Positions 15,442 through 62,800 of a stretch of DNA of 64,000 nt are shown here, in pieces. This stretch comes from Amoebophrya sp. A120 (lineage: Eukaryota > Protista > Dinoflagellata). A program made the position numbers and the translations under genes. The notes under the pieces are model-generated. The model was not told the origin of the DNA, searched no databases, and saw nothing but the letters and a program-made list of their open reading frames with translations. The stretch lies in the NCBI GenBank assembly GCA_905178155.1, contig CAJINV010000016.1:1687102-1751101 (forward strand), written 5' to 3'. Position 1 is the stretch's first letter; every line of letters begins with the position of its first letter.

Positions 15442-18400
15442 TTACTTCCAGCACGCGCCGTCACCCCACAAGTGGATCGGGGTGTGGTGGACAAAGTACC
15501 AGATCAGTTGGCACACGAGCCCGCCCTTCTTCGCGTCGACGATCGAAGCTTCCAAAAACTCCTTCAGGATGACACTCGTCCAGCCCCACAGAAACAGCAT
15601 TCCGGACCTATTGAGAGGAAAAATCCCCCCTCCCCATATCGAAAAGGTTTGTTTCCGAAAATTTGTCTTGCTGATTTGAGACCACAAATCGCGTCTGTCT
15701 TGCAAGAAGACAAGGGCAGATGCAGAAGCTTTCGCCATATTATGGAAGCGCTTTGTCATGCTGTTGGGCCTAAAGGGGAGCCGCTTGCCATGCTGAACAA
15801 CTAGACGCATACGCCCCTACCTAGCCTGGGGGCCTGACTGCAATGCTTTCCTGCAATACAAAGCTGATTTGTGTACTCAAATCCAGCATCAGAAATTTCG
15901 TTTTGATATGGGGAGGGGGTATTTTTCCTTTTGATAGGACCCGGGGGTGCTGTTGGCGCCGAGCACGAAGCAGGCGTCCTTCGGCCCCAGGGAGGTGGCG
16001 AACATACCGGTATGAATTGCAAAAGTATCGTACTCGTATAAATGCATGACAAATTTCCTCAGCATGAGAAATAAAATTTGTAATGCTGATTTACCTCAAG
16101 AAAAATATTTGTAATGCATGATTGCAATACGAGTACGATACTTTTGCACTGCATAACCGGCACCCCACGGCCACCACGTGTCCATCATCTTAGACGGGAC
16201 GCACAGGGAGAACAGACCTGTAGACCAGTGTTTGCGTTTGGATTGAATTGATGGAAAGGGATAATAAATTACATGACAAAGAACAGTCACAGTCATTCGA
16301 ATTTACGCATCACAAATTTTTCTAGTACCGCCCGGGTCGCCGTGGGCCTGGTAGTCCAGAGACTTGACATTCACGGCAGCATGGTGTGCCTGTTCCTCGC
16401 CCGGATAGGAGATCTTCGGAATTGGCGGGATACCTGGTTGTGAACGTTGTCAATGTTGGCGTTGTGTTTGTGCATGACAAAGTCGTGCCGCGTAATCTAA
16501 TAGGCTTTGTTCGCTTTGAGCATGACAAATTTTTTCATCGAGATGATCAATTTGTGATGCAAAAAAGCAGCAACAAAACCATCTACCCTTGCCACCCGGC
16601 ACCCAGTCGTTTGGCCCGCCGACGCAGCCGAAGTTGCAGTCGCCCACCGCGTATCCTGTGCAAAAGTATCGCACTCGTATATTAAATGCAAGTCTTGCAT
16701 TACAAATCTTTTTCTTAAAGGTAAATCCGCATTACAAATTTTATCTCTCATGCTGAGGAAATTTGTAATGCATTTATACGACGAGTGCGATGCTTTTGCA
16801 ATGCATACCGCGAACACCGTCCCCTTGCCCCACGGCTTGCCGTCCTTCGTGGTAACCTGCAGCTTCTTGTTCACCAAAATCCAGCCGCCGCCGCCCGGAC
16901 CTTGATTTGTTATTTCCGATCGAAATATATGATCCGTCAAAAGACATCCTCAGTCGTAGGGTGAGAATCAAATTATGGTGGATCCAAAAATATGCATGCA
17001 TCATCCAATTTTTCGCAAGACAAATTGAAATTCTATTGAGATTGACCAGTTGCAGAAAATAAAAAAACTCTTTCTATTATACCCTTATCCGACAACGTTT
17101 CCTTTGGCATGAAGTAGTTGCTCGCCTTCACGCCCATGCAGATGTAGGTCTCGTCTGCGCCGTTGGGGAGGCCGATTTTTTTCCAAAACTCGGGTGAGTT
17201 CGGCTCGTACTTGACGCCGTAGACCGTGTTGATACCCTTACTTCTCATGTACTTGTCGCAGTAGCTGGGTTTTGAGTTAATTCAGTTTTATGTATCACAA
17301 GCACGCAAACGCATCAGCATCGTCTTTGTTCCTGCAACACAAGTAAAATCATTTAGAGTGAACAAAACATGAAAGAAGAAGAACCATCATTCGATACTTC
17401 TGTGCATCCACGGGGAGGGGTCCGAGGCAGTTTGGCAAGAAATCGATGATCGTCAGTTGCAGTGAGGTATCCAGTGCAAAAGCATCGTACTCGTATTGCA
17501 ATCATGCATTACAAATATTTTTCTTAGAGGTAAATCACCATTACAAATTTCATTTCTCATGCTGAGGAAATTTGTAATGCATTCATACGAGTACGATGCT
17601 TTTGCAGTTCATATGAGGGGAAGAAGTACTGCAGCTCTGTGGCCCACTCGACTCCGATGAATCCCGCACCGCAGACGAGGATCTTCGCGTTTTTTTCCGC
17701 CAAGCCCTTGATTTTGTTGTACTCCTCCCAGATGTGGCGGCGGCGACCCTCGATGGTGCGCTCGTCCAAGTGCTTCCAGTTGGAGTGCGGCCGGGCCTCC
17801 TCGTAGATGGTCGGGAACCACAGCGACTCACCCCACTTGTGCAGAAAGTTGAAGTTGCCTGAGATGTCGTTGGAATTGTTTTGTTCCTTGCATCACAAAT
17901 GTAGTCCTAGTCTCGCTGTTTTTGCATGAGAAATAGGAGCAGAGTGCGAAAATCAAAATGCTCATGATGCGGATTATGCATCACAAACTCTTCATCCAAA
18001 AAAAAAATACATCCGGAGCAGATGATGCAGTAGTCGAATGCCAGTTCTTCCGGCGTCTTCTTTATGCAAAGAAAAAAGTTTCACAGTATACACATTGTGT
18101 TGCAGGCCAAGCAAAACAAACAAGCTCTGTCATGCCAGGCAGGCATAGGATTAGGAGCCTTTTTTCAAACGTGTTCTTTCTACTCTTCTCATCTCTGCAT
18201 TACAAATTTTCTCTCTTTTTTTGCGTGAGGAGCGAATTTGTATTTGTGTTGCTAAGTGGACAACATGACAACAGGTGTGAATAAACTGTAAGACTTGTTT
18301 CTTTGCATATCCTTCCATCTCGGCTTGATCATGGCCGTGCACTTGTCGCCATCGATGCCCTTTACCTCACCCCAGATGAACTTCACGCCCACCTTTTTCT

Positions 18401-19164
18401 CGATGACACCCTGCAGCGAAAAGGAGAGGGCATCGAAGTGGGAGGGCTTCACGAACGCCCGCAGGATACCTTCGATTTATTTATGTTTCGAGAGGATCAT
18501 TTTTGTTGATTTTGTATAGTTAAAGCACGCATGATAAAGCACGTGGACGTGTCTAAAGGGAGTTCAGCATGACAAACAACCACTCTTAGTACCGGGTGTG
18601 TATTCGAAGAAGTCCTTGGCATCGACGATGGTTACGTCGAAAGCCCACTTATCCTGAGCAAAAGCGTCTCCACCCTATAGTTGTCATGCAGATTTGCATC
18701 TACAGGAACACCTGTAATGCGCATCCGCATGATGAGAGCAGGAATTTGTAGCCGTGATCTGGGATTTGTAATGCTGTAAACCGCATAAGCAGGCATGTCT
18801 CTGATGCGGCTGTCGTTGCTGACCAGCACTACACTGCAGATGGAAACCTGTCATGCACAACTCCCAAAAGTTGGGGATTTGTCTAGCAGATATCCCATCT
18901 CGACTGTGGGGTGGGGACGTTTTTACTGAGGATACCACTTGAGATCTTTCGCGGCGAGAATTCCGGAGAAACCACCTCCAACGATAAGCACCCGATATCC
19001 TGTGCAAAAGTATCGTACTCGCAGTAATCGCAATCATGCATTACAAATCTCCCTCTTAGCCGAAATCCGCATTACAAATTCCATTTTTCATGCTGAGGGA
19101 ATTTGTCATGCGATTTATACTAGTACGATGCTTTTGCATTGCATACACGACGATTTCCGCCCAT
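15442..19164 (-). CDS. FAD/NAD(P)H-dependent oxidoreductase, AIFM2/AMID-like (pyridine nucleotide-disulphide oxidoreductase fold)
   Basis: Reconstructed MGGNRRVLIVGGGFSG..VTIVDAKDFFEYTPGILR..FDYCIICSG..ILVCGAGFIGVEWATEL..VFAVGDC; 7 TIR inserts plus about 6 conventional introns. Confidence 0.88.
15609..15936. mobile_element. Introner, family E
   Basis: TIR TAT..GGAAAAATCCCCCCTCCCCATATC / GATATGGGGAGGGGGTATTTTTCC..ATA; repeat GGACC; frame restored; the only copy that can be read GT-AG. Confidence 0.9.
16011..16155. mobile_element. Introner, family A
   Basis: Repeat ACCGG; removal gives WWPWGAG|MFATSLGP. Confidence 0.92.
16652..16807. mobile_element. Introner, family A (opposite orientation to 16011)
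   Basis: Repeat CCGCG; removal restores the conserved VFA|VGD motif. Confidence 0.92.
17468..17613. mobile_element. Introner, family A
   Basis: Repeat TGAGG; removal gives YFFPS|LQLTIID. Confidence 0.92.
18063..18309. mobile_element. Introner, family G
   Basis: Similar to 181-391; TIR TATGCAAAGAAA / TTTCTTTGCATA; repeat TTCTT/TCCTT; frame restored. Confidence 0.82.
18650..18934. mobile_element. Introner, family B
   Basis: Repeat CCACT; removal gives KDLKW|AFDVTIVD. Confidence 0.9.
18996..19145. mobile_element. Introner, family A
   Basis: Repeat CCCGA/CACGA; removal gives MGGNRR|VLIVGGG. Confidence 0.88.
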
Positions 19165-21103: not shown

Positions 21104-24100
21104 TCAGGAACTACTACCCGGAGCTGGTGCGTTCGCGCCCGGCTCCCCGCCTCCATCAGCCGAAGTTGTAGACGGCTCGTTCACATTGCCCCCCACGATT
21201 TTACTCGACGTGACTTTGTATCTCGGACCGGTTCTGGTCTTGCCGAAGGGGTAATTACTTTTGTCGTGTTTTCCTTTGCCCTTCTTCTTTCCCTCCTTGT
21301 CTTTCCCGCCCTTTCCGGTAGTACCTGCTTTTGATGTTGTTTTTGCCTTCCCCCCTGCTGCTGTCGTAGCAGAAGTACTCCCTCCTTCATTGTCCTGCTT
21401 GCCACTCTGTTCTTTGGTTGCATCCTCCTTGTTGTTCGTCGCGGGTGCAATTTCATCTGTTGTGTCCCCATCTTTCCCCTTGCCCTTTTTCTTCTTCGAT
21501 TTCCCTCTCTTCCGCCCCGGCCCGGCACCTTTGCCTCTATCTTCGTCAAGAACATCCTCGTCGTTCTGGTCCGCGGTAGTAGAGGTTTTATCCGTCATCT
21601 TGCTGTAACTTGCCTTGCTGTTTTTGTCCCCGCCCTTGGAGGATGAGTTCATCTTTCCTGCGCCCTTTGATGTGCTGTTTGTCGGGTTATAGTTGTTGCG
21701 GTAGTTGCGCGCCTTGTTGTCCGCTTTATTGTCACTGCTAAACAAATCCTCGCCGTTGACGAAAAAGCCCCAGTTGGGCTTCTCCCGTACCACGTCATTG
21801 AACTTCGGGTCCGCCAGGGCGTGGGGGCGGAAGAGGATATCTTCCTTCACCAGAACCTCCTTAGTTCCGCTTTGGCGCGGCTTGCTGCTCGCGGCCGAGG
21901 GGGTATTGATGGTCTCCTGTCCGGATTTCGGAACTTCCGTTTTCTGGTCGTCGGAATTCGTGGGGAGGGACTGCGCGGTAGAAACCATGTTGTTGATAAT
22001 GCTGAACAAATCCTCCTTGCGGTACCTGAATGGTGAAGTAGTACGGCAATAAATCATTGACAATTTGAAAAAGTAGGTACTTAAAGGGCTTCCTGTATCA
22101 TCAAGATCAAGCACGATAGTATCGCAACGAACTATACAAAAAAGCAAAATCGCGCCAACATCCGAAAAGGCAGCACGATCAACACGAAGGAAAACTTCTA
22201 TTCAAGTACCTTCTAAATTCGTGCGTGAAGCCCGCCAGCTCAGGTGCGATGGCGTCTTGCTCGATTTCCCCGGTCAACGGGCGAACAGGAGGGTTGTAAC
22301 CGTATTTCCCACCTGCACCTCCCTTGGCGGATGAAGAACCTCCTGCGAAAAAATTGGCACCACCTGGACCTCCTTTGCTGTTCGTCCAGTTAGAAGTGCT
22401 CATTTTTGCGCCGCTGCTGGCCGTTGCGGTGCCGTAATTGTTGAAGCCGGTATTGAATGCGTCGTACATGCCTGCGCCGCCGGTTGGAGCTTGCTGTTAT
22501 GCATTGCAAAAGTATCGTACTAGTATAAATCGCATGAGAAATTTCCTCAGAAAGGAAAATGGTTTTTATCATGCTGATCTACCTTAGGAATCAGATTTGT
22601 CATGCATATCTGCGATTAGTACGAGTACGATGCTTTTGCATTTGATAGCTGTTCCTGCATGTTGAAGCCCGTGCCCTGCTGATGCATTTGCGCTTGTTGT
22701 GCGTCGGTGGGGAGGAAGAAATTTCCCTGCTCGTCCAGACCTACTGAGGTTTGGGGATACCTGGAAAATATTGCGATAAAACATGCAGCTGTTGCACTTG
22801 TTGCATCAAAGAAATCATGCATGAAATGCAATCCCAGTCACGCACGAGCATGACAGAGTTGATGTACGAGTACGAGGCAACAGTATTATAGCAGAACGAT
22901 TTTGATTTTCAAATCGTCTTCATCGCCGGACAACACAAAGAACGAGAAGAAACTCAATACCATTTCTGTCCCCCGTCCGGCGACCACATGACTAGGCCCG
23001 TGTTTGGGTCGTACATCATGGGGGTGCTGGTGTTCCCTGCTTCGTCCATAGTGCCGTACTCTTGTCCGTCCATTCCCCCGGGAGATTGCCCCGCCGCGCC
23101 GCCCATATTATCGCCACCGGAAAACATGGCGCCGGGCGATTGCGCGTCGAAGCTGTAGCGCTGCATCAAGTGGTATTACAATGAAAAATGCCCCCTCCCC
23201 ACATCAAAGCGGAAACTTGTGATGCAGATTCGTGGCCACAAATCAGCTTTGTGATGCTAGAAGGCAAAAGGTGCGGACTGTAGTGCTGTCTAGCGTAGGA
23301 AAGCCTTGCAGCTCCAGGATGACAGGAGGCAACTGGAAGTGGGAAACAGCATGGCAGATTGCCTGCAATTTAGGCCGCAGCTTCGTCTCTTGGCCTTCTA
23401 GCAATACAATTCGATTTGTGTACTCAAATACAGCATCACAAATTCGCGCATCTCCCGTTTCCGATATGGGGAGGGGGGATTTTTCTTTTTGATAAGTAGT
23501 TCGGGTCGTTTAGCATGGGTTCGTCATAGGGTGTATCGTATTTAAAAACGTCCCCACCCCATAGCTGTAATGCAAATCTGCATGCTAAAAATGTTTCTCA
23601 TGCGGAGCCCCATGAGAGGCATCTTTTAGTCGTGTTTTCAAATTTTCTATGCTCCAATCAGCATGATATACTAGATCTGTAATGCTGCTGAGCTACCTCA
23701 AACAGCACTACACTACGAGTCCAAATTTGTCATGCAAAACAGCCAAAGCTTGTGGATTTGTCTAGCCGATTCCCCATCTTGACTATGGTGTGGGGACGTT
23801 TTTACACAGGATAGGGTGGCACCCAGGTCCCCGCAGTCTGGCTGTTTGCGGGCACCCAGGACCCGTCGGGCATGATGAAGCCACCGTTGCTGTACTGCGG
23901 CTGGTAGTTTGGCACCACGTTGTACGCGTTGCTGGTGTTCAAGATGCCGTCCTGAATGTTGCTGTAATTCAGGTTGGAATTGCTCAGCTGGTCGGAGGTG
24001 GCGTCCAGATTATTCGTGAACAACCGGTCGCGCTGCGACGTGCTGGTTGGGGACTGTTGCAGATTGATGTTGTTGGTCTTCTTCAGCGAGGTGCTCTATC

Positions 24101-24971
24101 AAAATGAAAAATCCCCCCTCCCCATATCGAAATGGAAATCTGTGATGCAGGATTTGTGTACACAAATCGGATCTGTCTTGCGGTGGAGGACTGCAGACAG
24201 ATACAAAGCCCGGAAAAGGGTGGCTTGGGGTAGGTACTTAGCATGGCAGACGTTTGCCCTAGTAGCGTAGCAGCAATACAAATCGCCTGCGAAATGCAGC
24301 GGAAGCCCTGGCTTTGCTCTCTTGCAAGACAGACTCGATTTGTGACCACAAATCAGCATCACAAATTTTGAAAAGCACGCCTTTTCGATACATATGGGGA
24401 GGGGGGATTTTTCCTCACAATATGCTCAAGCCCATCACCACGTTGGCCTGATTCTCCGCGGTGGGCGATTGCGCGGTGTTCACCACGTCGGCGGTGTAGG
24501 ACCTGTCGTGGGGGGGTTTACTTTGGAAGGTGGAATCTAAGGAGGAGCCCTTGGATTTTGATTGTTTTGCTTTTGGTTTCCTTTTCCAGGGCTCGAGCAT
24601 GACAACATGCACCAAGAAAGCCAGGTGCGGGATCAGGATCTTCATATGCTGGTTCATCTGCTCGCGGTATTGGTAAAAACATATCCGTGTTCTTGTAGTA
24701 GTTCGCACAATTTGATTTTCTCTACAACTTGTTCTCACCTGTCTCCTAGTATGTCTAAGCTCGGCAGCGTTTGCGGCAGGATTTCCCGCACACTGTCCCG
24801 CAATTCTGGCACCATCATTTTCCCGGCCCCAGACGCCGGCTCGCCGTCGAGCAGGCCGTTTAGATTGAGATTTTTGTTTCCGCGGTTGTGCGCCGAGGGG
24901 GAGGTGGCCGGACTGTTACCTCCGACGTTGGTCGTGCGGTTGCGATTACCGTTCTGCTCCAAGGTAGCCAA
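21104..24971 (-). CDS. Low-complexity G/N/K-rich hypothetical protein; may be the C-terminal part of the upstream LARP4-like gene
   Basis: ORFs 24415..24738, 23802..24023, 22954..23169, 22179..22469 and 21104..22147 linked by four TIR inserts and probable GT-AG introns. Confidence 0.55.
22498..22647. mobile_element. Introner, family A
   Basis: Repeat GCTGT; frame restored. Confidence 0.9.
23174..23494. mobile_element. Introner, family E
   Basis: Repeat AGTGG/AGTAG; frame restored. Confidence 0.85.
23534..23813. mobile_element. Introner, family B
   Basis: Repeat GGGTG; frame restored (WVPP|YDEP). Confidence 0.9.
24097..24422. mobile_element. Introner, family E (inverted relative to 15609 and 23174)
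   Basis: Repeat TGCTC; frame restored. Confidence 0.88.
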
Positions 24972-32100: not shown

Positions 32101-32304
32101 AGGCGGCGGGTCGAAGTCCAGTCGTTTCTTTCCGTCCGCCATTTCTATCTCGTCTTTCGAAAATCGGTTAGAGGTGCGCATCACAAGAATTTGCTTTGGT
32201 GGCGTGTCCGCAGACTGTTCGTCCGGTTTCGCCGATGGTTCTGGCTGCTGGAGGTGCCTTCCAATTTCCGAACTCCCTGGTGGCTGGTGCTGCGCATCCC
32301 CCAA
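29132..32304 (-). CDS. Divergent histidine-phosphatase (PGM-like) superfamily protein; exon structure unresolved
   Basis: Motifs in the expected order: ILVMRTSNR..DPP, FLCSPLLRSMQTL, NLALHE, IVVVVTLSGV. Confidence 0.4.
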
Positions 32305-43153: not shown

Positions 43154-43205
43154 TGAGCCACATCTAGCACGAGGACGGGTGAGCCACAGCTAGCGCGAGG
43201 ACAGG
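43154..43205. repeat. Two imperfect 26-bp tandem copies in intergenic DNA
   Basis: TGAGCCACATCTAGCACGAGGACGGG / TGAGCCACAGCTAGCGCGAGGACAGG. Confidence 0.7.
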
Positions 43206-46700: not shown

Positions 46701-49700
46701 GTCGTGACGGTGTCTTTTTTCCCGTCCTTGTTCACTGTCTGCGCTAGAGAATCGTGGAAGTCATCGAGCTCGGTGAGCAGAACCCGGAGCGGAGGCGGTG
46801 CCGGCGGGGCCTTCATTGTGGGGGAGGTCACGACCGGCGTGGCTGTTGTACTAGTACTACCGGAGGTGGAGTCATTCTCCGCCGCTGGTACTGGTGCTCC
46901 TGCCGTGGAAGCTCCTTTCGCATCTGCAGCCCCCGTGTGGTCTGAAGCAGAGGCGGAATCTCCGCCACCGGAAGAAGTCGAGGCCGTGGTCCCGTTGGCA
47001 ATCTCTGAAGAAATTGCTCCGGGTCGTACCCAGTGTGCGTCAGAACGGCCTGCTCGTAGTCCAGAAGCCTCTCCCATAATAGCATCCCCGTCGCCGTCGG
47101 TTGTTGCTGCTGGCCCCTTGATGTCCAAAAAGTCTTCACTCTGGTCAATTTCCATTTCGACAACAGCTGCGTTAGTATCGTCAAAAGATGTAAGTGCAGA
47201 CGAGGCGACACTTCGTTCCAGCGCTTCCGCGTCCAAAGGTGACAAAGCAGCACTTGCGTAGCTTTTCCCCCTAGATGTTGAACCCTCGTGCCTCTGCTGC
47301 GACGGCTTCCGCGGTCTCTGCCCGATCACCACCGCATTTTGGTCCACTTTTCGCTTCTTCGAGGGTGGCGGCGGAGGCGGGGCGGGCGCTCGGGCTTTCG
47401 TCTTCGGACCAGCTGCACTTGTCATCTTCCCCGACGGAACCGGCGGCGGGGCGGACTTATTTTTGCTACTTCCAGTTGCGGCACTCGAAGAAGCCGAGCT
47501 TTTGTTCTTCACTAGAAGCGTGTCGCGGTCGCCGAAGATCGCCTCCTTCTTGCTTTTTTCCAACTCTAGTCGCTCCTTGTTTTTCTCGATCCCCTCGGCC
47601 ACCTGCACAGCATTGGGTGGGGGCGGAGGCGCGGCCCGGGCGGCTCGCGGCGGAGGCGGCGGCTTGAGATCTTCAATCGGGATACTAGTAGAACCACCGC
47701 CAGTACTGTTAGTTGTGGTCCCGGTGGTCGTTGCAGCAGGAGGCGCGTGCCCTTTTCCCACATTTGATGTTCCACCGTACTTAGAAACCGATTTTCCGAA
47801 CAACACCTGGTCTGCCTTCTTTTCATCGTTTCCAGGAGAAATAATTGACGTTCGTTTCAGAGACAACGCAGAAGATGACACCACGGTAGCTCCTGCGGGA
47901 CGAGGAGGTGACACCAGCGTTTTCCTTTTCCACACAATTTTCCCGCCCTGTCGCTCCAGCAGGTCGCACTGCTTCTCCATGAGCAGGTCCCCGCGGGCAC
48001 AGAGCTTCGCGTCGTTTCCCACCGGGTGGAACGCCCCGTCCGAGTGGTAGAACGCTGGCGTTCTGCCCGGTTTTTCCGCTTTCAAATTGTACAAAACTTT
48101 CCGGTACAGACCCGGCTTGTCCGGTAAGTTCAGCGAGTACCGCAAAATCCCCGGGTCTGCTTCGAACACGGAGAGTAGCCGCGTGTTCGCGCCGCCGCAG
48201 AAGTCCAACCAGGAGGGCTGACAACCGCCGCCCTCGTAGATTTGCAACAGATTCGTCGACAACTGCTTGCTGAAAAAATTGTCTCTGCCAGCACCTCCTA
48301 TCGTGGTTGCTGCAACCATTGGCGCTGAAGAAGGGGCAGTTCCGGCAGCACCAGCCAGAGCAGTTGTGTTGCTCGGCGTATTGCTAGAAGTTGTACCATT
48401 ATTCACCTTTGTAGAACTAGTACTAGCACCGCCTACAAGCCGAACTGCTCCAGTTTTCGAGCTCGACGCCATTTTATTTGCTCGTTTAGAGGATGGATTC
48501 ATTGCACCTTGCGCACTTTGTTCCGCAGCGGCCGTGTTGTTGTTCGCAAGGGCCGCTTTCGTTTTCGGATTCACATTCGGATGAACCTGTCGCCCGTTTA
48601 AAATCGCCAGTACCACGTCCTGCCACAACCCTGACGGCCTGCTCGCGGACATGGTTTTCCCGTCGAGCGAGGGCGTTTTGGTCAGGAACACCGTCTCGTA
48701 CTCTGGGTTATCAAAACAAAGAAAGTCGTTCAATTTATCAACGTAGGAGTTGGAATCCAAATCACCTTCAAGCAGTTGTTGCCCACCCGGGAGGTTCTTC
48801 TTGTCTTTCACGTCTACTGTCGACTTCGAAGCTCCTGCTGTTCTCGCACTACTAGACGAGCCTGAAGATGATGTTCTCTTGCCCAGTGGAAAGGTTTCCA
48901 CGAGCTTCAAGAACTCCAGAAATTTCGCCCGCTGCATGTCAATCCCCAAGATGAACTTCGATAGGGGATTTCGGACCTTCACGAAGGGAAAGTAGTGGGT
49001 TTGCTCCACCGCTTTCAGGGTTTCCAATGTCAGCCCGTCGTTGTCAAGCGGGCTCTGGTGAAAGTTGTTCTCTCTGTGCGCTTCGAGGAGATTTTGCAGG
49101 ACGAAGAGCTGCGTTTCGGTCAGTTGGGACTGGCTTTCGTAACTGATCTTCAATCGGCCGCCGTTGTTCAAGTTCAGGCTGGTATTCGTAGTTTCACCGT
49201 TTTTCGTCTTTCGTGCAAGGGTTGTAATGTCTTGACGTCCACCTCCCTCCTTTTCCGACCGTACCGAATTCTCCGAGCTGGCGGGGGAAGGAGCGGATTC
49301 TCGTTGCAGCTCCTGCTCATCTGCCTTTTTATCTTCGGTTGGCATGATCATGTTGATCTTCGTCTCTTGTGGCCCTCCTCCGTCCGCTTTCCTCTTCTCC
49401 GGCACTAACAGCTCGCCTTTTTTCCCCACCAAGCACCGCGAGTTCTCCACATGGTGCCCCGCGGTTTTCACGTAGCACTGTCGCCGCGCCACGTCGTCCC
49501 CCGCCATGTAGTTACTTTCATCCGCGGCGCCACTGATGTCTTTGATCATGCACAGTGCGCTGTCCCCACTGTTCCACACCCGCACCCGGTCTTTGGTCAC
49601 GTTCCACACACCGTAGACGAACGTGCACCCGGAATGCAGGGCTTTGAGCCCCAACCGACAGATCATCCGGATATGGAAGCGTCAGGATTGAAATCGTCAA

Positions 49701-52700
49701 AGTTGAAATAATTTCTCATGCATAAACTGCAAGGCATGGAATGCCTGTCTTGCCGGGATGGCAAGTGAGGCCGACTGTCAGCCTGTTTAGGGTTTGGAAT
49801 AGAGCTGCTAAAGTAGCATGACAAAAGCCTTCTTCTGTCCCTAAACAACATGACAAACTGAATCTAGACGGTGCCGAAATTTGTCATGCACCGCTTGGAA
49901 ATTGGGCTTCCCACTGGTATCGATTTTCTGCATTACAACTTATTTCAACTCTGACGATTTCAAACCTGACGCTTCCATACCGGATCTGGATCAGGTAGAT
50001 GTCCCGCATTTTGTGCAGGTTTTCCTTGTCGGAGAAAAACGTCAGCAATTCGTTCCGGACGAACTGCGAGCACTCCCTCCCGTCGATCCCGTGACCGTCG
50101 AAGACGCCGAACTTGATGCAGTACTCGTTGTTAATGTAGCCGTAGTATGCTCTGCACAAGTATCGTACTCGTACTACTTGCAAACATGCATGACAAATTC
50201 TCTTCCTAAGGTAAAACAGCATTACAAATTGCATTTGTCGTGCTGAGCTAATTTGTAATGCAATTTGTACTACTACGATACTTTTGCAATGCATACGTAG
50301 TCGAAAAGGAGCGCGTCTTGGTTCTCCTTGCTGATAGAAAAGGAGCGCTCGCCCTTCGAGTTCTGAATCGTGTCCATGGAAGCTTGGATCTTATCTGTGA
50401 TAGAAGAAGTTCATTTGCATCTTTTTTGCAGACGGACACGGAGACGTACAGGTAAAAATGGTATGAGCAACAACTTTAACTTTATCGCAAGTCATAACTT
50501 GTCGACGGAAGACGGGACCAGCACGTGAACATCAACGTCGTGATGTCAAGGTACCAGATTCGTAGTCGAAACAATTAGAATTACAATTACAAGAACAAAC
50601 AAAACAATTAAACTCTATTAATTTATACAATCCGCCAAGACTTGTTCCAACTGCGTGGGATTTTTGCTCTTCATCGGTCTTCCCTCCCCGTCCGGTCGCA
50701 ATTCTTCAAACACCCCGACGGGCAAGTGTTTTTTCGTTGCGAAGTAGATGTCGGGCAAAATCTCTTCGAGCTTCATCCGCCGCTGCAGCGCTTCGTTCTA
50801 TCGTATTTAAAAACGTCCCCACCCCAGAGCTGTAATGCAAATCTGCATGCTCAGAATGTTTCTCATGCGGATCCCCATGAGAAGCATTTTCTAGTCGTGT
50901 TCTGCAATTTGTCATGCTCCAATCTGCGTGATGTACTAGATCTGTGATGCTGCTGATCTAGCTCAAACAGCACTACGCTAAGAGTCCAAATTTGTCATGC
51001 AAAACAGCCAAAACGTGTGGACTTGTCTAGCCGATTCCCCATCTTGACTATGGGGTGGGGATGTTTTTACTCAGAATACGTTCCCCGGCATGTTCATCAG
51101 ATCATTCCGCAGAATGATGTTGGAGCAGCAGAACTTGTGCAGAGCGGACCAGAAGTGCTCGTCAAAGTAATTGTTGAAAAAGGTGTCCGGCAGATCCTTA
51201 AAGGCAAAGAACCCATTCGACATGGCGAACACGAAATAATCGCGCAGAATCATCGACAACTTTTCCAAATAGTCGACGCGCGCGGTGAGCCAGCTGCAAC
51301 TGAAGAACAAAATATCCGCAGCGGCGTGGACGTCGTCCCGCGGCGGAAGCTCGAGGACTTTGCTGTCCAGCCGCCGGATCTCCAGCTCGTACCACCGCGT
51401 TTCCAACCGGTAGGCGGTGAGTTTCGTGATGTAGTTGAGAATCCTCAGACTGTCGTGGTCTAGGGTGTAATTCGCGAAAAACTTGCAACAGGTCACCAGG
51501 AACTTCCAGCTGGTGTGGAGCAGTTGCGCGTTTAAGTCGGGGAGTTTTCCCGTTTTGTCATCGACGTCGGAAATGTCGTCGTAGATATGCTCGTCGAAGG
51601 CTTCTTCAACATTATCAAATGCAAAAATGTCTGGGTCTGGAAGAATCTAACTTGTCATGCTAAATCTAAATCATTCAAAAATCTGTGTTGCATGATTACC
51701 AAAAGCTGTCCACTTTTGACCTAGTCGAGAGGCAGTTTCTCATGCAGGATAGGCATGATAGAACTCTCACAGAATCTGTCATGCTATGTCCTACATACCA
51801 GACCTCATGGGTCATGGAAAACCTGCATGACAAGTCTGCATTCTTCCAGACCCAGACATTTTTACATTTGATAAACATCTGTGAGAAACAACTCACTTTC
51901 CGCGTTGAGGTTCCGCGTTCGAGCGGCAAAAGCCGAGGCGTTGTTCTCGGGCAAGGCTGCTTTCGGAAGCGGTTTGTTCCTGGCATCCAGAAGCGAGTCT
52001 AGAACCTTCGTCGGCCAGGAAGACGTCCGGGGGCTGGTGGGTTTCGTAGTCGCAGTGCTGGCGCCAGGGTTGCAGGAGCCCCCAGGGGTAGTGGTCGCTT
52101 TGCTATTCGAAGGTCTTCTTGCTGTTTGTTCTGCAGTGCTGCCCGAGGTGGCATTTTTTAACTGATGTTCTGTCGCCACACTACCACCACCAGCTGTCAT
52201 CAGCTCCGCGTTGTGGTATTTTTCCTCGTCCAGCGATTCGATGTTCACTTCCACAAACACCTTCACGCGCCGCATTTCCCGCATCAGTTTCTTTTGCGTC
52301 TTGATTGCGTGGGGGAGGGTGAACCCCACTTCGGCCCGCAACAGCCGCGTCAGCCGCTTGTCACACTCAACCCCGGTCGTGTGCAACTCGTGCGGCGCGC
52401 GGAGGACGGCGGCGTGGGGATGTCATGCATCGCAAAAGTATCGCACTCGTTGTACTAATCGCAATCATGCAAGACAAATCGCCTTCCCAAGCTAAATCAG
52501 CATGGCAAATTCCATTTGTCATGCTGCGCCAATTTGTATTGCGCTTACTACTAGAAGTACAAGTACGATACTTCTGCATTGCATAGCTGGGCGAACTTGT
52601 GGACGTAAACATCCATGATTTCGATCAAAATCTCCTCCATGAAAAACGTGTCCGTGCGCAAAACCGGAATGGGGTACCCCTCGACAAAGTAGTTGCTCTT

Positions 52701-55693
52701 GGTACTAGGTCCTCCCTCTTCAGCGTTTCCACTTGATGTTGCCCTATGCCTATCCGTAGTACTGGAAGGTGCAGCAGCTCGATCATTCCCACGACCCATG
52801 GCCGCGCGAGCAGCAGCTGCTGATACAACAGCAGCATCAGCTCCACTTTTCTTTTTCCGTCCGAGCTCCCTCGCAGGTATTCTGGGGCGCCTGATCTTCG
52901 TCTTAGTGCCATTTTTGTTTTTCCTGCTGCTGCTGTTTTTGTTGTAATTGTAGCTGTTGCCGTTCAACATGTGGTTCCCAGCCGAGGACGAAGAAGATCC
53001 AGCAGCAGCGTCGTAGTAGTAATACTGCGGCTTCGCCTCCTTTCCGTCTTCGTCAAACCCCAACAGCATCCACTCGGTAAATTCCACCAGCTCCTCAACA
53101 TCGACAATTTGGTTGCGGATGATATCGACCAGCAGCCGCATCCGGAGATTGTCAAGCTTCTTCACGTTGATGTCGTCCACTTCTTGCGGCGCCTGCGCAA
53201 CAACATCAGGAGCGGCACTCGCACTGGTAGCTGCATCAGACTTGGTCAACATATCAACATCTTTTTCTACTTTGCTGTCTGCCACCTCAGCTTCTCGACC
53301 TGTAGTCCTATCTCCATCTGGCGCAGTTGATGCTGTTGTTGTGTCCTCACTATCCAATTTCAATTCAAAATATTGTTTTTTCATGAACTCGAGCTGCTTC
53401 TTCCGGTTATCCCAGTACCGTTGCCGGGCCGAGTCGATGGGGTCCAGGGACTTCTTCCGTTTTGCCGGGTTATTTTCCTCGTCGCTGGAAGTCAATCCGA
53501 GAGAAGATTTCCGGTCCCGCGAGATGCTGCGCTCGTTACCGTCATCCTCGTAGACGTTCGACTTAGTGATAGTGTCGTTGACTGTTGATGTTGACCCATC
53601 AAAGCTGCGAATGCGAGAAATGTTGTCGAGATTATCTCTGCTTCCAGGGTCGTTCACATCGAAGAAATGCCTGGAAGCTGTGCCAGTTCCGGAGTACAGC
53701 AGCGCACCATTGGGCGACTGCTCCTTGTCAGCTTGCTGTTGGGCTGGTGGTTCTTGCTGGGTGGAGGTACTATCAGTATCACCGTCGTTGGATTTTTGGT
53801 TGGGTTTGTTTTGATGAGGTAGACTAACATCGGGCTTTTTCTCATCTGCTACACCACCCTTTCCATCTTCTGCGGAGGTTCCAGTTTTCCTGCTCTTCTT
53901 GTTCCGCGGTGTGTGGAGGTTCTGAATCACCTGTGGATCATCTTCCTGCTCATCCTTGCTGGCGACGCTTTTACCAGCACTGTCACCAGCCTTTTCTTCT
54001 CTTTCCTTCCGCTTCTGTTCCGATTTCAATTTTTCTTTTTCCTTCCGCTTCTGCTCCTTATCAAAAGGAAAAACGTCCCCACCCCAGAGCTGTCATGTGG
54101 TTTGCAATGACAAGGACATCTGTGATGCGCATACCCCTGGTAGACATTTCCAATCGTGTTTTGAAATTTGTGATGCTGTGAACAGGATAAGCAGATAGAT
54201 CTGTGATGCGGCTGCGCTTGCTAATCTGCATTACACTACGGAGGGCAACTTGTCATGCGTGACTCCCAAAACTCCTAGGTTTGTGTTGCAAAGTCCCCAG
54301 CTTGACTATGGGGTGGGGACGTTTTTACACAGGATACTCCTGCTGCTGCATTCTCTCCTTGATGAGATCATAATCCACATCGCCAAAAAGCACATCCTCG
54401 GTCGCCGTGCGATTGGCGGGAAAGAAGCGGGACGACGCGGAGGTTGAAAATGTTGATCCTGCACTACTGTTTTGTTCGGAGCTGCTGCTACTACCCTCGA
54501 CGTTGACCGCACTTGTAGTGGTTGCGCTGTCGCTAGTATTTCTGTCGCTCCTGCTTCTTGGACTTTCCATAGAAGTGCTCTCCTTTGGAGTTGGAGTTCC
54601 TGGGCTTCTATCAAAATAGAAGTCCTCTGGGGATGAACTGCCAATGCCCCGGTTGAGATCATTATACCCAGCAACATCTTGCTGATGAATGGAACTTCGG
54701 GAAGATGACTGCTCGTTCAAATTTCGATACTGCATTTCTTTTTATGAACTGCAAAAGTGAAAAGTATCGCATTCGTATAAATGCATTACAAATTTCTACA
54801 GCATGAGAAATAAAATTTGTAATGCGAAATTGCCTTAAGAAAAGGATTTGTAATGCATGATTGCAATACGAGTACGATACTTTTGCACAGGATACTATCT
54901 TCGACGGACTGACGTTGAGAAGATCCAGCGAGGCCAGATTATGGCGTTCTCAAACGTTACATTCTCAGCTGTTACATGATTTGTCATGCAAAATCACAGT
55001 TAGAATTGATACGATCAAGCTGCTTCGCATGACAAATTCTCGAAGAGCCAAACACGCTGAGAATCTGTGCCATATCTGTCATGCTAGACGCGCAAGGTCA
55101 CCCCTTTGACTTTTGCCATTCTTGCATCACAAATTCATGTAACAGCTGAGAATGTAACAGTTGAGAACGCCATACAGATCGGCTTCGCCGTTGGGACTTA
55201 CTTTTGATGTTCGTGTTCCGATGGTTCCGTTATTATTTTTCGTCCCATTTATTTTGCCGAAATTCACCGCAGAAGAGGAGGAGGACGCAGCGGAGGTGCC
55301 GATCAATACGCCGTTCACGACCCGATTGGCTCCGGCGGTCGGATTTGTAGACGATGTTGTAGTGGTACCAGTTGTACCGCGTGGGGTCAACAATCCACCT
55401 GATGCATTTCTACTACTGCTCGTCCCCGCGGCCGCGCCAGACGGTGGACCTGCTCCAGCCGTACCCTTATTGCTCACAACTCCCCCTCGAGGTCCGCCAA
55501 CCACGCCTCTCTGCGAGGCCAAGTTCGCCGCCGCGACAGCACCGACGGACGCAGGCACGGCTGCTGTCGTCGATGTGCCGCGTGGCATCACAAGTTGCCC
55601 TCCGACGAAGAAACTGTTGCTGGCGCCGGAAGAACTGTTGCTCATATTCAGGGCGTATTTGTTCTTTTTGGAAGCCATCTTGTCTTCTTGCAC
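43789..55693 (-). CDS. Giant PP2C/PPM-family protein phosphatase (~2,870 aa reconstructed)
   Basis: KENQDA, FGVFDGHG, SGCT, VWNSGDS, LNLARGFGD, YLVLGSDGVFD, SDDTSAIAI in order; removing 12 TIR inserts (plus repeats) and GT-AG intron 50395-50628 leaves 8,616 nt in one frame by my count. Confidence 0.85.
44732..45013. mobile_element. Introner, family B
   Basis: Repeat GTGCG; left tip is TTT instead of TAT; frame restored. Confidence 0.85.
45073..45396. mobile_element. Introner, family E
   Basis: Repeat ACTTC; frame restored. Confidence 0.85.
45688..45975. mobile_element. Introner, family D
   Basis: Repeat GTAGG; left tip TGT; frame restored. Confidence 0.85.
46424..46698. mobile_element. Introner, family D
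   Basis: Repeat CCGTC; frame restored. Confidence 0.9.
49672..49979. mobile_element. Introner, family F (single copy)
   Basis: TIR TATGGAAGCGTCAGGATTGAAATCGTCA / TGACGATTTCAAACCTGACGCTTCCATA; repeat CCGGA; frame restored (IQIR|MICR). Confidence 0.9.
50146..50295. mobile_element. Introner, family A
   Basis: Repeat CGTAG; joins NQDALLFDY|GYIN..FGVFDGHG. Confidence 0.9.
50799..51078. mobile_element. Introner, family B
   Basis: Repeat CGTTC; frame restored. Confidence 0.9.
51613..51873. mobile_element. Introner, family D
   Basis: Repeat AACAT; frame restored. Confidence 0.9.
52424..52585. mobile_element. Introner, family A (degenerate)
   Basis: Left tip CAT; repeat GATGT/GCTGG (2 mismatches); removing element plus 5 bp restores the frame. 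Confidence 0.75.
54059..54336. mobile_element. Introner, family B (divergent body, family-E-like left tip)
   Basis: Repeat CTCCT; frame restored. Confidence 0.88.
54743..54894. mobile_element. Introner, family A
   Basis: Repeat degenerate (CTTTT/CTATC); removing element plus 5 bp restores the frame. Confidence 0.8.
54940..55174. mobile_element. Introner, family C
   Basis: Repeat CAGAT; 9 differences from the 8184-8418 copy by eye; frame restored. Confidence 0.93.
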
Positions 55694-56810: not shown

Positions 56811-59800
56811 TCATTTTTTCGAACCTACAACTTCGCTCGCATCCTGCGAAAATGATTCCTCTTGTTCGTCCTGAGCTGCCTTTTCCCGCGCTAGTCTCTC
56901 TGCCTCTTGCTGCTCCCTGTACTCTTGGATGAACGATTTCGTCCGAATCACCACGGGCACCTGCGTCGTCGTGTGGTCGTCGTCATTTGCCAGCAATGTG
57001 ACGGACAGACGGTTCTTTGAGGTGTGAATGTCCTTGGCAAACCGCTTCTCCACATACCCCATGGCCATGCTCTTCCCGGTTACGTTACTGAACGCTCCGC
57101 TAGTGGTGTACCCGATTATTCGTTCTTCACATTCACTTGATGTGGAGTTGCGGTTGTCATCTCGATCTCGCCCATGCGGCCCTGCTACGTCGTCGAAATA
57201 GCTCGTTTTTACCCAAATCGGCTCGCCGCCGACGCAATGTGACAGCTGTTCCGCGTCTGCGACCTCGCTGCGCGAAGAGGAAAACGTCGAGGAGAGACTG
57301 GCGAGAGCGGTCACAGGCGAGGGCGTCGCGGTGGAAGTTGTGGAGGTTCTGGTGCTCGTGAGATCTTCCGCAACTGTATCGTCCTTCCCTATCTCTCCAC
57401 TGATTCTGGCTCCTGATCCTGCATCTCCGCTATCTGTCGTGCTAGTACCTCGTTGGCCATCAGAAAGAACGGAACTCGCGTCATTTTCCGATGCACCTAC
57501 TTCTTCCTCGCCAATCAACACCTCGAGCAGGACGAGTCGCATAGAGGAAGGTTCCTTTGTGGTCTCCAGCCTTTCATCCGCTTGTCGATTCTTGTCTTCA
57601 TCCTGGGGGGAAGTAGATGTCGGTTGTCGCCGTGATTCTCTAGTTGTTTTCTTTGAGTGTGGTCCTTCTTTCGCCGTTTTTCTTTTGTCTTTCGAGTTCG
57701 AATTCACCTCCCTCAGTAACGCGTCCCTTCCACAAAAGTCTGGCGGCTTTCCCGCAAGGATACTATACAACTCACCGTCTAGATCGTTTACCTCGCTCTC
57801 CGAAAACACCCCTGCTTCTATCGCGGAGTAGTCGCGCGTCAACTCCGCGCCAATTCTCGCCTTTGCGGATTCCAAGCGCAGTTCCTCCAATGTGTTTTGC
57901 CCGATTTCCTGCAACTCCGGAATGGACGCAAGGAGGTACTGGTACAAACCCAACACCTCCTTGCTGTTTATGGATTGCAAATATGTCTGGGTCTGGAAGA
58001 TTGCAAGTTGTCATGCATTTTCTGCATGACCCATGATGCCTGTAATGCATGACCTAGCATCACTGATTTTTAGAGGACTTCCTGATGCCTATAATTTCGC
58101 ATGAGAAATGCCCTCTCGTCCACGTAACACCAACTGGGCTCCAGTTGCTGGTCACGCAATACAAATTTTTTTCGAATCCAGAGACAGCATCACAAGTTGC
58201 ATCCTTCCAGACATCCAGGGATATTTGCAGTTCGATACTGTTCACGTGAAATTCAAACGCCTCTTCAGAGCCGTACGCATTATTCTCCGGCGGCAGCCGC
58301 ACCACCCGACAGAGCGAGTTTATCAACTGTAAAAGTTTGGGTCTGGAAGATTCTGAGACTTGTCATGCACGTGTTGCGTGAGCCATGATGTCTGTGATGC
58401 ATGCCCTATCATCACAGATTTTTTGAGGGCTTCTCGATGCCTATTCGGCATGACAAATGCCCTCTTCGCGTAGGAAAAAACGCTTCCTTTGCTGCTCATG
58501 CAATACAGATTTTCATTTTTTTGGAATCCAAATGCAGCATCACAAGCTGCATTCTTCAGGACCCAGACATTTTTGCATTTGATAGAGTTGTTGATCGTGA
58601 TAAACCGGTAGGAGTTTTCCTCCCACTGGGGTCCTGCTGCCTCATCGGCGAACAGGTCGCGAATGTGCTTGGCCAGCGCCGGCCGCGCTTCCCTTCCCGT
58701 CACAAGAAGGACTGAGAATGTCGCCACCGACACGCTCGGCGGGGGAGCGGGGGCGCAGTCGGACGTTGAGGCTCCTTCAGCTTCCTCCTGCATCACAAAT
58801 GCTTGCTCGACCAACGCGGAGTAATCCTGTCCAAACCGCTCTATCGGGGAGGTGAGGTAGAAAGTGTTGCTTGTTTGCACGTTCTGGTAATCGGAATTGG
58901 TACTTCCCCCGCCGCCGCCAGTGGATGCCGCCACAACTGTCGACGTCGCGCTGTCTACGTGCATCACCTGGAACTCCGACAGAATGCCCCCGGTGGTCGG
59001 GGACAGCAGGTAGCCGTGTTCCACGGTGTTGTTGGTAATTTGTACGGCGGGAGATGTTGGTCGGCTGCCTTTTTCTGTGTGATGTTCGTTTTCGCCGTTG
59101 TGGTCCCTACCAATATTTGTCGTCGTGTTTGGAGCACGCCTCGGTTTTCTTGAGTTGGAATCTTCAATACCTTCGAAGTGGTCCACGTTATCTTCATTCA
59201 TCTTCACCACCGGAATCCGGCAAGTGAGCATTCTATCCAGAAACTGTTCCGCACACACCCCTTTGACCTCAAACGCCGCCCGCGGCAGGTAGGCCAGCGC
59301 GACGCCCTTCCGGACCGCCACCGCCTCGGCGGTGGAACCTCGCTTGCGAAAGATCGACACCGCTTTCTGCACCAGCGCGCCGGCGCCGGTGGCCGGAGCG
59401 GCCCCAGACCCGGAAAAGGACTCGACAAACTGCCCCGAGGCGTCTAACACGGCGTTTCGCTTCTGCACGAGAAATTGGAGCAGTTCCTGGTTTGCGACCG
59501 TTGCGTCATTGCAGAAACTGCGGGAGATCGCGGTGCAGGTGTTCTTTGAAGAATTCGCTCCCGTGCTGAAACTGCCGCTCGTGTTCGAATTGGAATCCTG
59601 AGCTCCGCTCACGTCGCCCCCAACGGCGCTCAGCAGCTTCGACGCGGTCTGCTGACTTTGTTCAACTGTGCAATGAAAAAGTATCGCAGTTGTAACAGCT
59701 TAAAATTTTCCATATGGATCTGCAAATTTATTCTATTTCGAAAGGCTGCATGAAGATGCGAATTTATAAAAATCTGGTTTCCTTTTCGGGAAAAGTTGAA

Positions 59801-62800
59801 GTCGCTCTGTCATGCATGAGCATGAGCATTATCATGATTGCAAAAATTAGTACCAGCAGCACTGCGATACAGTTTTGCACTACACCATATCGACTGTGCT
59901 GTACCAAAACCGGACGCCCTCCTGGATTTTCTCTGGTGAAAGCGAGTTCGCGAACCGTCTCGGATCCACTTCGTCGAGCTCGTATGGCGGCTCGTTGTGC
60001 AGGATGAAATGCGCCAAGTAGTTCCCCAGGCCCGCGCACCGCGCGACCGAGAGACTGCCGTTTGCCGTTGCGAGCCAGTAGTTTTTTCGCCACGCGCTGC
60101 GACGGGCTGGGGCGAAGTTGGTGTTCGACGTGTTGGCAGCGGTTGTACTGGTGGAGCTAGATGAACTAAAGCAGGCTTTGGCAATGTCAGCCGAGCCGGG
60201 AAAGATGCCGGAAGACGCGGTCGCGTATGACGAGTTTGGGCTGCCGGAAGACCCACCGGCACCAGACGTGCCACTGCTGTCCGTTTCCAAACCTGCAGAG
60301 GCGGCGCTAGTTATTCCAAACGCCCCACCAGAAGAAAGAACAGAAGTCCCTCCAATACTTCTCGGTTGTTGTATCGCGACCGGGCCGACCAGCGGAAGTG
60401 CGTCCAGTGCGTGCACGATCGGGGCATTCACCACTTCTTTTATCCCCACCCCACCCAGCAGGGGCATCAGCTTGCTGGCGGCCTCCATGTGCGGGAAAAG
60501 TCGATCGATGTTTGCGTCGTAGCGGTAGTACTGTGGGTAGTTGAAGCAGTTGGTCGCGCTCGCCGGGGTTGAGAAGACCACGTCGCGTTCCGCGGGTGCC
60601 AGGATGAAGCTGTGACTGGATGAAAATTGCTCGTCTACCTGGTACAGGGAGAAGGACCCCCCAATGTCCTGAACGATGGGGACTACAAGCGGGTCGTCCT
60701 GGGGCGTGGGGGAAGTTGATGTAGTCGGGGCCTCGTCGGTATTTGTACTCAGAAGTTCAAGTTCTTCTTTTTCCAAAACGGGATTTTCCTCGTCGCGAAA
60801 ACCGGTAGATGATGAACTACCTGCAGAGGTCGTGGTACCGGAGGTTTCACTACTACTACTTTCAGGGTGTCTTACAGCTGCACCATTTGTAGTTTTTTGG
60901 TTCACGTCACCGTCACGTGCTCCAGCTGCTGCGCCCTCATTTTGTTCATCCCGTATCATCTTTCTTGTAACATCTTCGTCCTTTGAAGTGGCGGCCATGC
61001 TCGCTGTGTGTGACGATGATGTCAAGGTCTCCCGCGAAGAAGTAGCTGCGGGTGCTGGAACAACTGCGGAGTCAGCAGTTCCTGCTGTTGTATCGGTGCT
61101 GGTCGCGGAGATGATCTTCGGCTCCGTTTCATCGGCAACTGGAGGTGGTGTATGCTGTGCAAAAGTATCGTACTACTCGTATAAATGCATTTTTCTCAGC
61201 ATGAGAAATGAAATTTGTAATGCAGATTTGCCTTAAGAAAAAGATTTGTATTTGTAATGCAAGACTTGCATTTATACGAATACGATACTTTTGCACAGGA
61301 TATGGTGGAGGAGACGACGATGTTTTACTTTGTGAAGCCACAGCGGTTTTGATTTCGTCCATCATCAAGTATTGGTGCTGCATCACCGCCACAGGTACTT
61401 CCACGTTGGCCAGCATGCCGACTTCCCGTGCGTTTAGCCCCGCGGCGTTTACCACATGGTCACACACCACAACCTGCTCGCGCACCGTGCCGCCGTTCTG
61501 CCACTCCACCGTCACCTCCCACTTGAAATCGGACTTGCGCTGGTTCGGCTTTATCCAGTGCAAAAATATGATGATCGTACATACAAATACAAATTGCAAC
61601 ACAATTTTTTTATTTTGTCACAAAGCAAAGTGAAAATGATTCTCATGCGGTATGCGGTGCCGTCGGCGTGATTTGAAATATTTATATATATGAGTACGTC
61701 GACACATCAACTTTTATTGCAGTGGGTAGTTTCCACCACAGTGCAGTTCTCGAAAATGAGATTTCTCTCTTCACGACTGATGTGCTGTTCTTCTTCACCG
61801 CTGCCGGTCGGTGAGATCTTGACATTCTTGTTGCCTAAACGGTTTATCTCCCGTACCATCGCCGTTCCAAAAGCCCTAGCGTCCACGCGTCCCGCGTCGG
61901 GGTAGTGCAGCACGATGTTCTGCGAGTTTTCCAAATCTAGTATGCATTGCAAAAGTATCGCACTCGTATAAATGCATTACAAATTTCCTCAGCATGGCAA
62001 ATAAAATTTGTAATGCGCATTTATCTTAAGAAAAAAATTTGTAATGCATGACTGCGATTACTACGAGTACGATACTTTTGCAATTCATATCTAGAAACGG
62101 ATATCAAATGCTACGGAAATTATTTCAATTCTTCGATCTCACCCTACACCAACTGGTGACAACTCTTGTACGTGTACGAGCGTTGTTGAGAAATGGCACG
62201 CCCGGTGTGTTTATTGTGGCTTATTTGAAAAGCTCTGCAGTGAAGCGGATGACGGCGATTATGCTCATCTACATCCTCATTTTCTCCAGCTGCATACATT
62301 CAAATTGATAAACATGACCTATGTAAAAACCCATTGTTCTGGCCACAAAAAAGGCCGGTTGCCGTGTCTCGAGCGGCTTGCACCAAAATAAGATGAATTT
62401 CCGCTAGGATAAGCAACTGCTGCAGTTCCGGAAGGGAATAGTTGGCATTCGATGCTGGTGAGGGAGCCGTCGTGGAGCCTCCAGACGGAGCCGTCGTGCT
62501 TGTTGGAGACGTCGCGGCACCTCCACTTGCTGATCCTGGTAAAGGCGACAGTAGCGGTTCGAAGCTACTTTCTTTTGCTGACGTGGAAGGCATCGCCTGA
62601 AGATCTTGGTACTCGTGTACCTTCGCCAGGCCGACCTGTATCCAATGCAAAAACCACCTCCCCACCCCATAGTCAAGCTGGGGATGATTTGGCTACGCAA
62701 AGAAAGAGCCAGCATCGATCTTTTGGCTGTCGCGCGTGACAAGTTTGGGCGAGCCCAAACGTGTCATCGCGTTTCACTTTTCTAGCTGCATCGCAAATCG

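Follow-up and report, generated by a model that had tools for sequence, protein, structure and literature searches.

Introners in a 64-kb window of Amoebophrya sp. A120 are removed in either orientation and have symmetric ends that are used asymmetrically

Introduction

In the marine parasite Amoebophrya, introns departing from the GT-AG rule are removed in an organism for which no U1 has been detected, and how this is done has been an open question since 2021. According to the text of Farhat 2021 (PMC7789003), the introners of strain A120 share ends composed of TAT, seven variable nucleotides and AAA, a hairpin, 3-5-nt repeats and non-canonical borders, and lie among co-oriented genes; joining through the hairpin is proposed there, and no clear splice signature is given. 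Here we analyse a window of 64,000 nt from Amoebophrya sp. A120 (contig CAJINV010000016.1), whose 42 repeated elements are very likely non-autonomous DNA-transposon introns, i.e. introners of the A120 type, and describe a polar N|UA ... A code at their ends (the bar marks the cut). The main and supplementary text of PMC7789003 use 'orientation' for genes only and do not relate introner orientation to host strand. Nor is the polar code described in the text of that paper, of which the logos in Fig. 3 and S19-S25 may show part.

Similar introns have been described in other lineages. Introners of Polarella glacialis and Aureococcus with terminal inverted repeats (TIR) are likewise DNA-transposon introns with target duplications, and several classes occur in either orientation; as far as the available part of that study goes, their G(T/C/A) and AG are recruited from the element or the duplication, and their orientation is biased (10.1101/2020.10.14.339549). 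Unlike these, the elements described here need neither GT nor AG, their duplication is unbiased (n = 179) and their orientation is about 50:50. The introns of Fritillaria borealis are also transposon-derived, with TIR and target site duplications, and are handled by a U2-type spliceosome off the GT-AG rule (PMC13326754, PMC11282704, in the parts available). However, Fritillaria keeps U1 and prefers the ends AG-AC and AG-AT, whereas in A120 both terminal dinucleotides are arbitrary target bases. The nonconventional introns of Euglena, in the accessible portions of PMC12501133 and PMC11282704, likewise have inverted-repeat ends, sliding repeats and cuts offset from a stem; they carry CDG and CH'G with a purine after the cut, form circles and are thought to be non-spliceosomal, whilst here a U-A and a single A are kept. 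The Euglena signature, CDG ... CH'G N5-6 | purine, is absent from the element ends, which show no purine bias.

A literature search that excluded subscription papers found no paper on the orientation or the branch point of A120 introners, nor on this code. Neither these elements nor introners that work in either orientation are new as such; the addition made here is that both orientations are used equally with neither GT nor AG, together with a polar and testable end code.

Results

Elements of the same family lie in both orientations

Pattern and inverted-repeat scans of the window gave 42 elements of 145-451 nt, together 15.6% of its length (Table 1). They open and close with TAT(N7)AAA ... 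TTT(N7)ATA or a near form and are flanked by 5-nt direct repeats, perfect in 33 of the 42, with one mismatch in seven and two mismatches in two. Family A has 13 members, B nine (including the diverged 62639), D seven, E and F four each and C two, with three singles. As in miniature inverted-repeat transposable elements, there are TIR, a target duplication of fixed length, no coding capacity and both insertion orientations. As in A120 introners, the inverted repeat opens with TAT, seven variable bases and then at least three A, a direct repeat within the 3-5-nt range stands at the borders, and repeated families are removed from RNA at non-GT-AG borders.

The original prediction had listed 21 coordinates at which elements of families A, B, D and E occur both ways in host genes that all run on the minus strand. 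Each begins a TAT(N7)AAA-type element with 5-nt repeats (52424 begins with CAT), and pairwise alignment in both directions returned the orientation counts that had been claimed, namely 7:6 for A, 7:2 for B, 5:2 for D and 2:2 for E. Since the elements match their own reverse complement at only 61-79%, orientation is well defined and is no artefact of the inverted ends; 16011 and 17468, for instance, are 94% alike when opposed and 77% in the same orientation. Orientation calls are weak for 62639, a diverged B element with added sequence (its interior blast against 41368 gives 49 bits), and for family E, with interior bit margins of 0-19. The minus-strand hosts were recovered too: a codon model with a margin above 3 assigned 36 of the 42 elements to the minus strand and none to the plus strand, with six undecided.

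A wider tally came from a motif scan over 19 of the 64 parts of a metagenome collection, which gave at least 156 loci, all on contigs of the assembly JACKZZ01; all later counts of loci refer to this sample. They hold the same families as the window, at up to 95% identity. The 314 matches listed comprise 250 that were kept, 15 at the edges of loci and 49 that were set aside because they were duplicates or had poorly resolved ends. Flanking codon bias was the sole basis of the host-strand calls here; of 155 confident calls, 149 match the majority on their contig. With a margin above 3 (195 of the 250), none of the eight families is confined to one orientation: A 58:64, B 6:5, C 3:5, D 14:12, E 6:4, F 2:3, H 4:3 and I 1:5. 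Family F, which stands 4:0 in the window, is among them. When host strand in this second assembly was decided by contig vote, the tally of orientation against host strand was 113:118 over 231 elements (p 0.79); the two orientations are about equally frequent. On the tree of family A, copies of like orientation are not grouped together (47 changes versus 45.3 when shuffled).

RNA loses the element and exactly one duplicate

Taking out each element plus 5 nt joins minus-strand frames of 1654, 1292, 1228, 855, 550, 522, 376, 375 and 339 aa, which span 30 of the 42 elements, and seven more lie in a gene of 458 aa (Table 1). The long frames are lost if the number of additional bases taken out is 3, 4, 6 or 7 and not 5. 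The introners of the 458-aa gene belong to families A (both orientations), B, C and E, and its protein aligns with six homologues at 67-86% identity (86% for P0006) with zero gaps at all seven junctions. The claim that family A lies both ways even within one gene holds for this gene and for the 1228-aa frame. Among the 120 homologues listed, the organism's own spliced protein is absent, and the named Amoebophrya match is that of A25 (73%). Domains in further host genes are ArfGAP, TPR, DAO and GCV_T_C.

RNA and DNA contigs were compared over window positions 4600-24550; to the right of 24.5 kb, removal is read from the frames alone. That run X4 is RNA is a guess, in line with its skipping of GT-AG introns and its zero depth in an intergenic bin. 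One X4 contig (depth 573) skips 333, 150 and 161 nt at 15609, 16011 and 16652, each skip being exactly the element and one repeat, and two GT-AG introns are skipped in the same contig. As 16011 lies in orientation 1 and 16652 in orientation 2, removal in either orientation, the central claim of the original prediction, is seen within a single RNA contig; this support covers one forward and one reversed A copy. A second X4 contig has 706 nt, the exact length predicted with 7757 and 8184 removed, and piece edges of X4 contigs agree with the removal of 8763 and 18996. In the DNA run X9, of which the joints were counted in part, single-copy contigs (depth 23-31) continue from exon into elements.

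Insertion, then, duplicates 5 nt of exon, and what is missing from the RNA is the element together with one duplicate, no more and no less. Where the copies can be told apart, the mRNA retains at least bases 1-4 of the upstream duplicate. At 18996 the repeats differ at transcript position 4, and a contig (19145-19649, 0 other letters) carries the upstream copy; at 18063 it is the upstream copy that yields the Glu of the closest homologue. The 5' cut is thereby placed either directly at TAT or one base ahead of it, and the 3' cut 4-5 nt beyond ATA. With these cuts, the intron is not centred on the hairpin. Across 48 mismatched repeats, codon consequences do not distinguish the kept copy, except at locus L054, where the downstream copy would bring an in-frame stop.

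GT-AG does not define the introns and the ends decay in a polar way

The elements do not have the GT or GC donor and AG acceptor of U2-type introns. Only 22 fits to G[TCA]-AG were found among 236 elements at six possible cut positions each, and 37 of 40 window elements are without any. The target duplication shows no base bias at any position (n = 179), and the first and last bases of the intron (repeat positions 4 and 5) do not covary (p 0.14). The element at 15609-15936 can also be read as GT-AG by sliding within its repeat, and such sliding may explain the repeat-bearing 'canonical' introns of A120.

What the elements do have, read in transcript sense, are polar donor-like and branch-like bases as in U2-type introns, whose roles we infer. 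We aligned the ends of 289 copies (42 from the window and 247 from the loci), found with a score that gives the same weight to both ends and to all three positions. Changes from TAT at 5' positions 1, 2 and 3 number 0, 2 and 7, and those at the mirror 3' positions 9, 9 and 0 (n = 289; Fisher p 4e-5, a value that includes one low-margin strand call, L148, flipped by eye after reading frames and that becomes 6e-4 without the flip). Two bases never vary in these copies, the first U of the 5' end and the A at 3' position -3; their mirror positions do. The loci alone, at a margin above 3, give 0, 0, 5 versus 8, 5, 0 of 195 (p 1e-4), and all five decayed ends of the window are on the 3' side. The sequence of the ends is symmetric; their use is asymmetric. 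This does not support the view that strand-specific signals are unlikely, as the decay of TAT and ATA is strongly polar relative to the host transcript.

Neither hairpin pairing nor strand-biased mutation accounts for this pattern. Wobble in a hairpin predicts that A2>G at the 5' end and A-3>G at the 3' end are tolerated, yet both are rare and A-C and C-A mismatches are common, so that positions 2 and 3 oppose the G-U expectation. As to strand-biased mutation, the same base on the same strand behaves differently by position, and element interiors are unbiased (A>G 80/2550, T>C 96/2557).

All 15 hand-assembled GT donors of the window are GTA, and seven are GTAT. The bases kept at the 5' end correspond to the +2 U and +3 A of these host donors, which would make +1 the last base of the upstream repeat. 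Both exceptions with a 5' TGT are preceded by a repeat G, which yields an ordinary GT donor and is consistent with a +1 in that place; copies with a changed 5' end follow a G in six of nine cases, against 31% overall (p 0.03, post hoc).

A long stem without a pairing signature

Both orientations fold into a long end-to-end stem (z -10.3 and -7.5), and arm positions 4-30 are equally conserved at either end. Compensatory pairs between the arms show no excess at any variable column of family A, where highly conserved arms leave low power. G-U pairs in stems stand against A-C mismatches at 207:182 without position 21, no general excess, and folding of the sense strands is not stronger than that of the antisense strands (p 0.18). 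At the family A stem position +21/-21, G replaces A in the 3' arm of 55 of 133 copies and the mirror change in the 5' arm occurs in 15 of 133, neither bound to a clade; wobble tolerance, a strand-specific hot spot and selection are candidates for the excess seen there.

An internal motif, CAT(G/T/C)ACAAA, occurs in every family and on both strands, with 52 and 46 occurrences inside elements. The related CAT(C/G/T)ACAA is found, mostly in one direction, in GT-AG introns (7397, 16272, 16308, 16473, 16521, 17891, 17979 and 18568), which could be introners of greater age or have a splicing motif in common with them. In family A, the block GCATTACAAA, 35-45 nt from the left end, is deleted in 61151 and at four loci (L023, L063, L065 and L066). 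All five deletions lie on the transcript's 3' side, and the block may matter only downstream of the donor.

Catalogue of the window and neighbouring features

Table 1. Introners and the host gene with transcript support in the window (positions in the 64,000-nt stretch)
Feature	Positions	Strand	Remarks
Family A, orientation 1	2351..2500	-	
Family A, orientation 1	4109..4269	-	
Family A, orientation 2	5991..6138	-	little RNA depth; coding interruption not assigned
Family A, orientation 1, repeat ACCGG	16011..16155	-	RNA joint skips 150 = 145+5
Family A, orientation 2, repeat CCGCG	16652..16807	-	RNA joint skips 161 = 156+5
Family A, orientation 2	17468..17613	-	94% to reversed 16011
Family A, orientation 2	18996..19145	-	repeats differ at transcript position 4; mRNA has upstream copy
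Family A, orientation 1	22498..22647	-	
Family A, orientation 2	50146..50295	-	
Family A, orientation 2, decayed	52424..52585	-	3' end ATG; repeat with 2 mismatches
Family A, orientation 1	54743..54894	-	in 1228-aa frame, shared with 52424
Family A, orientation 1	61151..61302	-	
Family A, orientation 1	61941..62089	-	AG of canonical acceptor inside duplicated repeat; coding interruption not assigned
Family B, orientation 1	441..720	-	
Family B, orientation 1	18650..18934	-	
Family B, orientation 1	23534..23813	-	
Family B, orientation 1	39028..39308	-	
Family B, orientation 2	41368..41659	-	repeat copies differ at transcript position 5
Family B, orientation 1	44732..45013	-	3' end decayed to AAA
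Family B, orientation 1	50799..51078	-	
Family B, orientation 1	54059..54336	-	
B-like, diverged and lengthened, orientation 2	62639..63089	-	
Family C	181..391	-	
Family C	18063..18309	-	repeats differ at position 4; upstream copy gives Glu of closest homologue
Family D, minority orientation	7757..8021	-	RNA contig of 706 nt, as predicted
Family D, minority orientation	51613..51873	-	
Family D, majority orientation	39347..39608	-	
Family D, majority orientation	45688..45975	-	3' end decayed to ACA
Family D, majority orientation	46424..46698	-	
Family D, majority orientation	57969..58237	-	
Family D, majority orientation	58321..58584	-	
Family E, orientation 1	15609..15936	-	RNA joint skips 333 = 328+5
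Family E, orientation 1	23174..23494	-	
Family E, orientation 2	24097..24422	-	
Family E, orientation 2, weak call	45073..45396	-	
Family F	8184..8418	-	96% between this and 54940
Family F	8763..9001	-	
Family F	40231..40465	-	
Family F	54940..55174	-	96% to 8184
Family H	2657..2872	-	3' end decayed to ACA
Family I	49672..49979	-	
Single element G	59667..59889	-	3' end decayed to ACA
Host gene, 458-aa FAD/NAD oxidoreductase (AIF-like)	15442..19164	-	7 introners, 6 GT-AG introns

No transposase that could move the elements was found within the 64-kb window; an integrase-like family flanked by TIR has been described in A120 (PMC12130899, in the part available). A search of viral contigs with the family A motif gave 0 matches, as did an Rfam scan of window positions 1-40000. 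TIR-like ends (TAT-N7-AAAA) without a partner lie at about 10053, 29530, 37652 and 61552.

At 61936-62094 an A element sits in a canonical acceptor; its duplicated CTAGA has the AG, and an in-frame stop lies four codons upstream. The region 10400-11600 differs from its surroundings, being GC-rich (about 62%) and almost free of X4 RNA depth, with a 272-aa plus-strand frame. At 11787-11886, raw reads of the otherwise sparse run X13 stack on a 100-nt piece that is flanked by poly(T) at one border and by adapter at the opposite one.

Discussion

The host-like +2 U and +3 A, the exceptions preceded by G, the published non-canonical sites and the distance of the branch-like A together make a relaxed U2-type spliceosome the most likely agent of removal. 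The nine commonest non-canonical sites of A120 all start N-T, whilst those of A25, whose repeats begin TTA, all start TT (PMC7789003 Table S4, as far as given there), and A120 retains U2, U4, U5 and U6 with 83 of 89 spliceosomal proteins (PMC7789003, in the portion available). We posit that the introners are probably removed either way by such a spliceosome, which would read each mirrored end in one direction only. The U-A at the 5' end of the element would serve as donor positions +2 and +3, and the intron would start one base before TAT (N|UAU), copying the GUAU donors of the host with +1 left free. At the other end, the A of the closing ATA is the predicted branch point; the intron would end 4 nt after ATA, which leaves this invariant A 7 nt upstream of the 3' cut, or 8 with the cut one base further on, and its distance, not an AG, would define the 3' site. 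A branch-to-cut distance of 7 nt is typical of species with fused branch and acceptor signals. Because TAT and ATA are dual-coded, as donor and as branch, both signals would be supplied whichever way the element lands. The long stem probably brings the ends together, and would not be the reason why the last three bases are kept. The stronger proposition, that the A120 spliceosome needs neither G+1 nor a 3' AG, and perhaps no U1, so that N|UA and a branch A 7 nt ahead of the cut suffice with the 3' site measured from the branch, is more tentative, and we would put its chance a little below even.

Several observations weigh against this reading. The branch role of the terminal A is predicted from its conservation and position, and the bases before it do not carry the usual branch consensus. 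RNA junctions do not pin down the cut around repeat bases 4 and 5, and host strand in the second assembly is a codon-model call without RNA; a strand vote at contig level weakens the counts to 1, 2, 5 versus 7, 5, 0 (p 0.004), with L001, where the local frame runs opposite, as the additional case. Two copies have a 5' TGT in a coding context. U1 was not detected in A120 (PMC7789003, in its available part), and the donors of its Table S4 may partly reflect how an aligner places sliding junctions. Finally, the family A stem at +21/-21 has U-G over C-A in excess, 45 versus 7, as an RNA stem would.

The original prediction called for a symmetric signal such as the hairpin. That idea survives in part: there is a signal at both ends, GT-AG does not define the introns and both orientations fold, but the signal is used in a polar way. 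Could a structure-guided, non-spliceosomal route, Euglena-like or by endonuclease and ligase, cut at fixed offsets from the hairpin base, with the polar bases as enzyme contacts? The strong end-to-end stems in both orientations, the excess of U-G at one stem position and the lack of GT-AG in elements of an organism in which U1 is undetected (PMC7789003, same portion) would all suit it, and Euglena introns offer a precedent with inverted-repeat ends, staggered cuts and the signature 5'-N3CDG-/-CH'GN5-6|R (PMC12501133, in the part available). On the other hand, the variable columns of family A show no excess of compensatory pairs, G-U is matched by A-C once position 21 is set aside, sense strands do not fold better, and the conserved 5' bases are exactly the +2 U and +3 A of host spliceosomal donors. 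We consider this route unlikely, and less likely than a relaxed spliceosome.

Alternatively, the spliceosome might use the N|UA donor whilst the 3' A serves as a protein-binding or ruler base and the branch lies elsewhere, e.g. in the internal CAT(G/T/C)ACAAA. The number of copies of this motif on the two strands, its presence in GT-AG introns and the missing branch consensus at the terminal A speak for this, but the motif is not better conserved near the 3' end, the 3' arms are more variable at positions 31-45, and where family A has lost the first copy, in five cases, this copy always belongs to the 3' side; we regard such a branch as rather improbable. Excision from DNA, as for the internal eliminated sequences of ciliates, or absence of the elements from the expressed allele, would need no RNA splicing at all. 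Direct repeats that lose one copy do resemble precise excision, and X4 is RNA by guess, with X9 joints counted in part. Against this, X4 skips GT-AG introns too and has zero depth in the intergenic bin, single-copy X9 contigs run from exon into element, and the constraints follow transcript direction, which makes such a scenario very improbable. More improbable still, and already largely refuted, is the use of cryptic GT/GC/GA-AG sites within the elements or next to them, as known from Polarella and Aureococcus. Either-orientation introners with such sites are known (10.1101/2020.10.14.339549, in the part available), and 15609 can be read as GT-AG; yet the RNA joints remove exactly the element and 5 nt, including at the non-fitting 16011 and 16652, only 22 fits turn up in 236 elements at six registers each, the repeats are unbiased, and nearly all window elements are without a fit.

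The two orientations amount to a natural experiment, in which the same end is seen both as a 5' and as a 3' end, and the bases that cannot change at each end name the candidate donor and branch positions. If the reading given above is true, this would be the smallest signal on which a spliceosome can work: a three-base palindromic end would be a complete intron signal, proof against both orientation and target. A DNA transposon with such ends would neutralise itself wherever in an exon it lands and whichever way it points. Tens of thousands of recently gained introns would be explained by such a signal, and the TTA ends of A25 would represent a second solution to the same code.

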